Below, one piece after another: positions 44,543-45,625 of a stretch of 64,000 nucleotides of DNA. The notes beneath the pieces were generated by a model, which did no database searches, was not told the origin of the DNA, and worked only from the letters and a program-made list of their open reading frames with translations. Made by a program: the position numbers and the translations under genes. Within the stretch, counting starts at the first letter, position 1; every line of letters begins with the position of its first letter. The DNA lies in the NCBI GenBank assembly GCA_963838285.1, contig CAWIQP010000007.1:194193-258192 (forward strand), written 5' to 3'. This stretch comes from an uncultured Chloroflexia bacterium. Its GTDB lineage: Bacteria; Chloroflexota; Limnocylindria; Limnocylindrales; CSP1-4.

Positions 44543-44619
44543 CGGGGCGTGGCGCAGCTTGGTAGCGCGCATCGTTCGGGACGATGAGGTCGGAGGTTCA
44601 AATCCTCTCGCCCCGACCA
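44543..44619 (+). tRNA. tRNA-Pro (anticodon CGG)
   Basis: Hand-folded: acceptor CGGGGCG/CGCCCCG, D arm GCGC-AGCTTGGTA-GCGC, anticodon stem CATCG/CGATG with loop TTCGGGA (CGG), T arm GGAGG-TTCAAAT-CCTCT, encoded CCA. The antisense ORF shows '[10 protein letters not shown]'. Confidence 0.85.
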
Positions 44620-45625
44620 TTCCCATCACAAGTTGCGTAGGCAACAATCCGGCATTCATCAGCGCCTGGCCAATCAGCCAGGCGTTTTCGTTTGGCTGAG
44701 GGTGGGCCGCGACCAAGGTGCCGCCCTCGACATCGAAGCGGACGAACAGTTCGTGGACTGCTTGCTCGCGGAGGCGATCAGGGACCTTCGGATCACGCCA
44801 GATCGTGCCGAACTTGGCCAGGGCGTCGCGAGCCTTGAGGAGCTCAAGCTCGTCCGGCGAGATTGCCTCGGTGGGCTCCGGGCGCTCCAGACGACGCCAG
44901 GCTCGGCTGAACACATCGATGCCAATCGACCCGGCGGCGAGCTGAGCTTGAAGTTCGGCCCGAGCTGACGCGAGCGAGTCGGGGTCCGGCGGCTCGGCGG
45001 GCGGGCGGAACTGCCGCATGGCCGCGAGCACCTGCTCGATGTTCACCTCGTCGAACCGCAGATCATCGAAGGAGCGGGCCAGCTGCTCTTCATACCACTC
45101 GGCGCGGTACGTGGCCTGCACTCCGCAGGCGGGGCGGGCGCTATGTCGAATGCGCCTGCGGCCGTTGCCCGCGTCGCCGTGGAAGCCCGAGCCACAGCCA
45201 AGGCAGCGCATCAGGTGTACCAGCGGATACGACCGGCGACCGTGGGATCCGCCACCCGCGCTGTGCGCGGTTCGGCGATGCTCGCGGATCGCCTGGACTC
45301 GCTCGAACAGAGCGGGGTCGATCGGCGCCTCGAAGCTCGCCGGCTTCTCTTCCTGGTCGGGCTTGCCCTTGTGGCGGATCGCCCGGCCGGCATACAGCGG
45401 GTTCGTCAGGATCTCGGTTAGTCCGGCCTCGGCCAGGCCGAGTTCGTCGGCGAGGTTCGTGTCGCTCCAGGCACCTGTGGCATACAGCTCGAAGGCGCGA
45501 CGGACGCGATCGAGGTCCGGCCCCTCGACCGGAGCCAGCAGCTGGCGCTCCCCCCACCCGCGCGAAGCCGAGCGGCGCATGGCCTCCCGGATCCGAATAG
45601 AGGCGCCACTTCTGGGCGTAGTGCC
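44620..45625 (-). pseudogene. large serine recombinase, C-terminal about 330 aa only (recombinase domain, zinc beta-ribbon, coiled coil); the N-terminal catalytic resolvase domain is missing at the composition break
   Basis: ...[15 protein letters not shown]...[19 protein letters not shown]...[10 protein letters not shown]...[10 protein letters not shown]... matches the Recombinase + Zn_ribbon_recom domains. The frame reads into the tRNA antisense without a stop. Sequence becomes AT-rich at 45626. Confidence 0.65.

Follow-up and report, generated by a model that had tools for sequence, protein, structure and literature searches.

The window, a stretch of 64,000 nucleotides from an uncultured Chloroflexia bacterium (contig CAWIQP010000007.1), harbors at positions 44543-45621 a proline tRNA gene which is overlapped on the opposite strand by a gene for a large serine recombinase (LSR). 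It is very probable that this segment is the junction, on the tRNA-proximal side, between a chromosome of the Limnocylindrales type (Chloroflexota) and an integrative island resembling the actinomycete integrative and conjugative elements (AICEs) and moved by an LSR whose own gene contains its attP attachment site. A first-pass annotation of the window had proposed an integrated element that uses the tRNA gene as its chromosomal attachment site attB and extends to the right. This proposal is supported by complete islands in relatives, by the synteny of the window with a related locus (L005) and by an 11.6-kb circle that was assembled three times.

The tRNA gene, a complete tRNA-Pro(CGG) on the forward strand (44543..44619), was detected by ARAGORN and by Rfam (RF00005, 63.3 bits compared to a gathering score of 29). 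It is the target gene reconstituted at the tRNA-proximal junction. On the reverse strand, a chimeric open reading frame (ORF) of 531 amino acids (44486..46081) is composed of a part of the DNA ligase LigA and a part of the LSR. Residues 5-152 of this ORF correspond to the adenylation domain of NAD-dependent DNA ligase (Pfam, E = 6e-49), the remainder matches the Recombinase domain (PF07508) in the part with a high guanine-plus-cytosine (GC) content (E = 5e-05, 23.9 bits versus a cut-off of 21.1 bits). The element-derived LSR coding sequence in its correct frame (GERQLL...GMVGAR; 44606..45550, reverse strand) comprises the Recombinase domain, a Cys-rich zinc-ribbon region and a C-terminal extension and represents the C-terminal two-thirds of an LSR. 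It is 94-95% identical at the nucleotide level to the related loci L035, L004 and L001, while its product shares 95% identity with P0001, a protein of 534 amino acids with an N-terminal Resolvase domain. The predictions of ARAGORN and Rfam, the PF07508 match and this homologue confirm that the pair of tRNA-Pro(CGG) and recombinase described by the first-pass annotation is real.

Since attP lies within the LSR ORF, the LSR frame, which has no stop codon ahead of the tRNA gene, crosses the whole tRNA gene in antisense orientation and is terminated only at 44486-44488, as had been noticed earlier. By contrast, the supposed distance of 20-30 bp between the recombinase end and the tRNA gene does not exist, because the conserved last LSR codons (GMVGARG) overlap the final ~16-25 nt of the tRNA. 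Read in antisense, the ~25 nt at the 3' end of tRNA-Pro give the codons for MVGARGFEP, and translation of the host-derived read-through, i.e. the antisense tRNA body and its 5' flank (44486..44603, reverse strand), gives 38 residues. The same tRNA end constitutes the 25-nt att core (44595..44619, the reverse complement of TGGTCGGGGCGAGAGGATTTGAACC), the segment that is repeated at the far end of complete islands. The window contains a single copy of this core (zero are expected by chance), since the island body is cut off at a break. Adjacent to the core and within the LSR coding sequence lies the P-arm motif of attP (GTGATGGGAAT; 44620..44630, reverse strand), which shows conservation at every LSR 3' end and has TTCCCAC as its mirrored counterpart on the P' side.

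A search of 5.8 billion proteins with the 371-aa LSR fragment as query yielded 190 matches, the best of which was 95% identical; the named sources of the homologues were Candidatus Limnocylindrales and Chloroflexota. Full-length family members comprise 490-565 amino acids and possess an N-terminal Resolvase domain (PF00239). An alignment of 14 proteins revealed an invariant catalytic motif (R24-x-S26-T27-x-x-Q30), which is found together with PF00239 in the 95-96% identical homologues, and four invariant residues (C296, C299, C322 and H316) in the zinc-ribbon region. For the homologue P0029, whose match to PF13408 was sub-threshold (21.5 versus 25.3 bits), AlphaFold2 predicted strands followed by long helices in this region. 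Comparison of the family profile with the PDB gave matches only to serine recombinase catalytic domains and to the integrases of TP901-1 and phiC31. The family of the window fragment is that of the LSRs, and its members carry a C-terminal extension of ~100 residues followed by an att-encoded tail. With the integrases of phiC31, Bxb1, TP901-1 and A118 it shares the order of Resolvase domain, Recombinase domain and Cys-rich putative zinc-ribbon region and, as predicted from the sequence, short, dyad-symmetric att sites with a central dinucleotide, whereas those integrases have protein-coding or intergenic targets and an attP outside the int ORF.

Islands at tRNA-Pro in related genomes

The LSR 3' end was found over an antisense tRNA-Pro gene in 19 of 38 independent genome loci (CGG in 17, GGG in two), and the same overlap with tRNA-Pro(CGG) occurs in two metagenome loci, L002 and L003. 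Because of this recurrence, the arrangement of the LSR gene on the tRNA gene is not due to chance. Nearly all genome loci showing the overlap belong to the Limnocylindrales (Chloroflexota), and in the two tRNA-Pro(GGG) loci the direct repeat changes in step with that tRNA. Among the relatives, synteny is closest in L005 (JBIOII010000057.1), where the genes for S9 peptidase, tRNA-Pro and LSR follow each other as in the window (84% nucleotide identity over 3.25 kb). Further on, L005 encodes a protein of the Replic_Relax type, a TrwB/FtsK-like ATPase and a transposase of the IS110 family. L001, whose LSR is 95% identical to that of the window, likewise contains a module of Replic_Relax and a DUF87/TrwB/FtsK ATPase, plus a type I restriction-modification system and GmrSD.

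Complete islands of relatives contain a second, identically oriented copy of TGGTCGGGGCGAGAGGATTTGAACC, which lies upstream of the LSR end. The distance to this copy amounts to 5.2 kb in L038, 5.4 kb in L019, 6.0 kb in L002 and L016, 7.9 kb in L025 (here as a variant sequence matching its own tRNA), 10.6 kb in L015 and 10.9 kb in L003. The first-pass annotation had suggested to look at the element's far end for a direct repeat of the tRNA 3' end; relatives do have one, a 25-nt copy 5.2-10.9 kb away. The Islander signature, a full tRNA gene and a displaced tRNA gene fragment flanking an integrase island, is present in L002/L016, L003, L015, L019, L025 and L038; of this signature, the window shows the tRNA gene and the integrase with a single core copy. 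The cargo of the relatives falls into three groups. Replication initiators adjoin the LSR gene (RepSA/REP_ORF2-G2P, Rep_1, AAA_25), with RepSA/REP_ORF2-like genes in L125 and L038 and Rep_1 in L025. The second group, TrwB/FtsK-like ATPase and Replic_Relax, is that of the window's own clade (L005, L001). Defense genes make up the third group and comprise AbiEi/Eii, DarT-Macro, a TIR protein, MmeI-type and type I/ISP restriction-modification systems, GmrSD and SIR2.

Among known elements, AICE-like integrative elements come closest. AICEs with serine recombinases (PMC3218068) are also small, reside in high-GC hosts, combine a serine integrase with a rolling-circle replication or RepSA-type protein and/or an FtsK-like ATPase, and occupy a tRNA site. 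They differ from the islands described here, which have a Chloroflexota host, a tRNA-Pro target and an attP within the integrase ORF, the latter not being reported for the mycobacterial elements in PMC3218068. According to the Islander paper, serine integrases were not known to target tRNA genes (PMC4383910). Ghinet et al. described eight serine recombinases of mycobacterial AICEs at tRNA-Leu and considered integration of this type to be rare (PMC3218068). Both reports agree with the earlier remark that tRNA sites are not commonly used by serine recombinases. The filamentous phage phiRSM similarly uses a tRNA 3' end, that of tRNA-Ser, as attB (PMC4471427), but its enzyme is a small recombinase of the resolvase/invertase type and its attP lies between genes and not in the recombinase ORF.

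Circular form and predicted crossover position

The LSR P0029, which possesses a native tail, is encoded on three contigs that were assembled independently and measure 11,640 bp (two of them) and 11,615 bp. These contigs are rotations of one ~11.6-kb circle, with terminal self-overlaps of 55 nt and 30 nt. The circle contains a single core copy and no tRNA gene, and also encodes a methyltransferase, a RepSA-like protein and a type ISP restriction enzyme. In this circular form (L125), the LSR reading frame stays open across the core, enters the P' arm and ends 23 codons later (...GARGFDPAVPTPRIVLPEWIANALRGAA*). An ORF that spans attP, as known for Mx8 and the SSV-type integrases, is thus evident from the circular L125 ORF, from the integrated read-through into the tRNA gene and from the coding signature of the tail described below. 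A BLAST search for an integrated copy of L125 among all loci gave only LSR-level similarity (70-83%).

The two arms of attP, GTGGGA(A/C) to the left of the core and (G/T)TCCCAC to its right, are inverted repeats of each other at a distance of 30 nt. They co-vary, since L002 has GTGGGAC/GTCCCAC and L003 GGGAAT/ATTCCC. The dyad centre lies between G15 and G16 of the core, corresponding to CC at 44604-44605 in the window at the boundary of T-loop and T-stem. It coincides with the point at which all LSR ends that are not joined to a tRNA gene diverge, right after ...GAGAGG. On this basis, the crossover is predicted to occur at the dinucleotide 44604..44605 (CC on the forward strand, GG in the orientation of the LSR gene). 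At position 1, the far copy of the core is not always the same as the near one, and the host tRNA gene of L015 does not encode the full CCA. Due to the predicted crossover position, the divergence points and the differences between far and near cores, approximately the last 14-16 nt of the reconstituted tRNA would come from the element. The tRNA gene would then contain nearly all of attB, in keeping with the use of this site by two LSR lineages in many species. Attempts to match the attB half-sites to the LSR by the offset rule for zinc-ribbon-domain (ZD) motifs gave no convincing match.

These data suggest the following course of events. In the free circle, the LSR ORF is intact and extends across the core into its native tail. 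Recombination with tRNA-Pro(CGG) would rebuild a complete tRNA gene, to which the element would give those last nucleotides, while the displaced tRNA 3' fragment and the tail-coding segment would be left at the far end of the island. The expected order at the far junction would be host flank, TGGTCGGGGCGAGAGG and tail codons. After integration, the LSR frame runs antisense through the host tRNA gene, so that the native tail of 22-23 residues is swapped for a peptide dictated by the tRNA and, beyond it, by whatever host flank comes next, as illustrated by the 38 read-through residues in the window.

The native tail and its exchange

The sequence to the right of the far core copy is conserved between islands. 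A scan of JGI (Joint Genome Institute) metagenomes with the core+P' pattern GGTCGGGGCGAGAGGATTTGAACCNNNNNNTCCCAC retrieved 80 further junctions, giving 87 core+P' junctions in all, and in each of them the LSR frame continues into the same conserved tail. Of 68 unique sequences, 45 have their stop at codon 30, and 52 have it within codons 29-32. Over codons 13-29 of these 68 sequences, the summed entropy was 15.5, 13.8 and 25.2 for codon positions 1, 2 and 3, respectively, compared to 15.2, 16.9 and 16.1 directly past the stop codon. The P' segment thus carries a protein-coding signature, a third-position wobble, which ends at a fixed stop. That the P' arm is conserved merely for DNA recognition by the recombinase and not for coding is very improbable. 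It is true that the LSR has to bind the ~20 nt immediately right of the crossover and that the TCCCAC motif mirrors the P arm, but the conservation reaches ~50 nt past TCCCAC with a 3-nt periodicity and third-position wobble, and both conservation and periodicity vanish exactly at the stop codon, whose position is fixed.

The consensus of the native tail is x-x-P-T-x-R-I-V-x-P-x-W-I-x-x-A-L-x-x-(V/A)-A-stop (~22-23 residues), and the first residue of the 30-residue P' peptide varies (L, M, V, P, G, T or Q). A separate gene of 30 codons for the P' peptide was also considered and rejected, as the base preceding the TG of the first codon is host-derived and variable. In a minority of cases, the tail is joined to a full LSR, namely in P0029 and P0079, in L048, L044 and L067 and in a second LSR lineage. 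The latter is represented by L094 (329-1852, a complete ORF of 507-508 amino acids), L003 (3-590, a 5' partial ORF), L065, L091 and L115. It is only 34% identical overall to the first lineage, while the last 30 residues are shared and the tail is ~80% identical. Its proteins end with MVGARGFEP...PTxRIVVPxW..AL, and because its ORF ends with this same tail, the second lineage shares the att core. In L003, the second-lineage LSR gene is located in tandem directly upstream of a first-lineage island.

A profile search with a padded tail alignment matched only ORFs of 30-85 amino acids called at far junctions and did not recover full-length LSRs of the attP form. Public gene calls hold many 'hypothetical proteins' of 30-85 amino acids starting with MVGARGFEP (P0121-P0124 and ~60 further clusters), which are orphaned tail-coding segments at the far junctions of islands. 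Viral contigs scanned with the core+P' pattern gave no match.

It has to be considered whether the overlap of the LSR ORF with attP is plain genome compaction with no regulatory meaning, the tail being conserved as a protein end and the integrated form being equally good or irrelevant. The chance that this holds appears to be slightly below even. The low confidence of AlphaFold2 for the tail and the fact that integrated copies end at arbitrary host stops are in line with it. On the other hand, the tail is strongly conserved between LSR lineages of otherwise low identity, it has a fixed length, and -VA or -AA is found at the end of 38 of the 69 unique native tails, whereas ~2% would be expected. 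Moreover, known systems with attP in a gene make functional use of the C-terminal change, as in Mx8 (PMC6070905) and BPs (PMC4557955). The -VA/-AA endings resemble ssrA-type C-terminal degrons, which is to be taken as a lead and not as a result. Tentatively, the tail exchange might be a built-in switch of a serine integrase, although this idea is rather doubtful at present. The native tail would be an ssrA-like degron or an activity module, and its replacement would change stability or directionality, leading to self-limiting integration or licensed excision.

If true, this switch would give serine recombinases an equivalent of Mx8 IntP/IntX and of integration-dependent immunity. The parallels, Mx8, the SSV-type integrases and integration-dependent immunity, all use tyrosine recombinases. 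For Mx8, integration changes the 3' end of the integrase gene and the properties of its product (PMC6070905). IntP likewise has attP within its coding sequence, and integration makes a recombinant gene with a new 3' end (PMC6070905, PMC4383910), but as a tyrosine recombinase it belongs to an unrelated family with another chemistry and att architecture. The 'suicidal' SSV-type integrases of archaeal viruses and plasmids, also tyrosine recombinases, are split by integration (PMC8371274, PMC7253208) into two large parts thought to be inactive, whereas the exchange described here is confined to the final ~23 codons and leaves every known domain intact. In mycobacteriophage BPs and its relatives, which have integration-dependent immunity, the repressor loses an ssrA-like tag upon integration, and the integrase has a C-terminal proteolysis signal (PMC4557955). 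Common to both systems are an attP in a gene and the loss of a C-terminal segment on integration, matching the frequent -VA/-AA end of the native LSR tail. By contrast, the split gene of BPs encodes the repressor and its integrase is a tyrosine recombinase, and for the LSR tail a degron function is hypothetical. No serine integrase ORF spanning attP was found in the literature searched, an absence that is no proof of novelty.

Serine integrases are the main tools for the insertion of large DNA, and the control of their directionality is under active research. The islands unite three unusual traits, an attB that would lie nearly all inside a conserved tRNA-Pro gene, an attP in the integrase's own ORF and a C-terminus that differs between the free and the integrated form. 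They may hence be regarded as a natural experiment in LSR self-regulation and might also provide integrases for which a conserved target is already in place. They also represent a common class of small defense, replication and transfer islands in the widespread, uncultured Limnocylindria and are a frequent site of assembly breaks. For annotation, the exchange explains recombinases with tRNA-antisense C-termini and the recurrent 30-aa MVGARGFEP 'hypothetical proteins'. The interest of the window lies in the insight into the family that is gained from a footprint, since the window itself holds a truncated footprint with a probable sequencing frameshift.

The break in the window and other tails

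The first-pass annotation had ascribed the short extent of the element to a chimeric break, which is in agreement with a fall in GC content, with the end of homology at 45621 and with LigA beyond it. Near 45620, the GC content drops from ~0.70 to ~0.38 within 30 nt, and nucleotide homology to every related LSR gene ends exactly at 45621 (BLASTN, 41 related loci). After ...CTTCTGGGCGTAG the window has TGCCTATATG, whereas all relatives have CCGTTGCC; past the break point of the window, the sequence of L005, L004 and L035 continues with ...GCCGTTGCC.... The LSR gene is cut at approximately residue 157 of a ~540-aa protein, and the catalytic resolvase-type domain is absent from the window. On the other side of the join, a truncated, foreign low-GC fragment of the NAD-dependent DNA ligase gene, which is not part of the element, extends over 45622..46339 (reverse strand), as identified by the DNA_ligase_aden domain (Pfam), the GC profile and the end of homology. 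It is hardly credible that the join at 45621/45622 is biological, e.g. an LSR-mediated insertion into the ligase gene of another host. The two fragments are in frame and give an ORF of 531 amino acids, yet the break lies in the middle of the LSR gene and not at the att core, both genes are truncated, the GC content jumps, and the in-frame reading depends on a frameshifted stretch. The join is interpreted as an artefact of assembly or concatenation, the in-frame fusion of ligase and LSR is accidental, and the 531-aa ORF is spurious.

Between 45551 and 45621 (reverse strand), the LSR sequence (~residues 158-181 of the homologues) is out of frame in the alignment with L005, L004, L035 and L003, because a C6 run at 45550-45555 contains one extra base (+1) compared to these four homologues. 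The LigA fragment is split over three frames near 46060-46140 and thus has two frameshifts of its own, for which reason the indel in the LSR gene is read as a sequencing error as well. Probably, the indels in the C6 run and in LigA are homopolymer errors of long reads.

Whether the window copy is a dead relic, i.e. a decayed recombinase fragment beside tRNA-Pro with no functional island behind it, had been raised in the first-pass annotation. For the family such degradation does not apply, but the window copy itself exhibits the homopolymer frameshift and lacks the body. The frameshift, the missing catalytic domain and island body and the decayed arrays of core copies that exist at the hotspot in relatives (e.g. 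L013, L035) are compatible with a relic. Nevertheless, a relic is unlikely, as ~315 in-frame codons of the window LSR are free of stops and 95% identical to intact full-length proteins, the lone indel lies in a homopolymer close to the similar frameshifts of LigA, and the att core and the P-arm are intact.

Several points weigh against an integrated AICE-like island moved by an LSR with attP in its own gene. The window copy lacks the catalytic domain and the island body (cut at 45621) and has the +1 homopolymer frameshift. Any activity of this copy, like a regulatory consequence of the tail swap, can be inferred at most. Neither an empty attB nor an integrated and an excised form of one same element were recovered. 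The crossover position was deduced solely from symmetry and divergence points. The AlphaFold2 model of P0029 reached a mean pLDDT (predicted local distance difference test) of 78.6 with good domains, but only 37-59 in the tail, for which no confident structure was obtained. Finally, 65 of 102 homologues with the GARG motif have various short tails that are neither of the tRNA type nor native, which is only partly explained by the loci L122 and L123.

The other homologues in this set have a tRNA-antisense tail (35) or a different conserved tail (two); many homologues end in the antisense translation of tRNA-Pro, including (T/A)KLRHAPTE. Recurrent among the remaining short tails are LAPP*, xPSLYG*, VxPTVAT*, LEAEVTS... 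and RLTRSSGIWIPRLYRG.... In L122 (11446-21476), an LSR with the tail LGPP* is followed by genes for HNH, methyltransferase, small and large terminase, portal, scaffold and capsid proteins. A prophage appears to lie between the island and the presumed tRNA gene and looks like a tandem neighbor at the hotspot. In L123 (11473-11520), the LSR gene abuts only a 32-nt 3' fragment of tRNA-Pro (ACTTGAACCTCCGACC), after which unrelated sequence and the housekeeping genes POR, RsfS, Obg and Rho follow. It is possible that this locus represents a secondary attB made of a tRNA fragment.

The LSRs closest to that of the window, L001 and L004 (11473-11605; L004 with 94% nucleotide and 96% protein identity), have no tRNA gene at their junction. 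They diverge after ...GGATTTGA and encode the tail RLTRSSGIWIPRLYRGRVLVTMGGA.... A tail of this type (RLTRSSGIWIPRLYRG...) is common to LSRs that are 61-95% identical to the window fragment and is nearly unchanged on P0004, P0055 and P0059 (61-76% identical). The TCCCAC-like motif of L001 and L004 is located ~30 nt farther out than in the canonical attP, and a Rfam search with the variant junction of L001 gave no match beyond a sub-threshold chance one.

In L013, seven core copies (1552, 4190, 6404, 11461, 15055, 17646 and 20062) and two LSR genes are located beside one tRNA-Pro(CGG) gene, and extra degenerate core copies, all in the same orientation, also occur in L035, L002, L019 and L023. 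The standard attP x attB rule does not account for this tandem accumulation of LSR genes at the tRNA-Pro site. In L039 (11607-11682) and L041 (8093-8168), LSRs that are more distantly related (27-45% identity) directly adjoin an antisense tRNA-Arg(TCG) gene, suggesting that other Chloroflexota LSR clades target other tRNA genes. A second proline tRNA gene of the window, tRNA-Pro(TGG), is located at 28952-29026, 15.6 kb to the left of the junction, and two proline tRNA genes lie 8.6-9.7 kb apart in L015 and L026.

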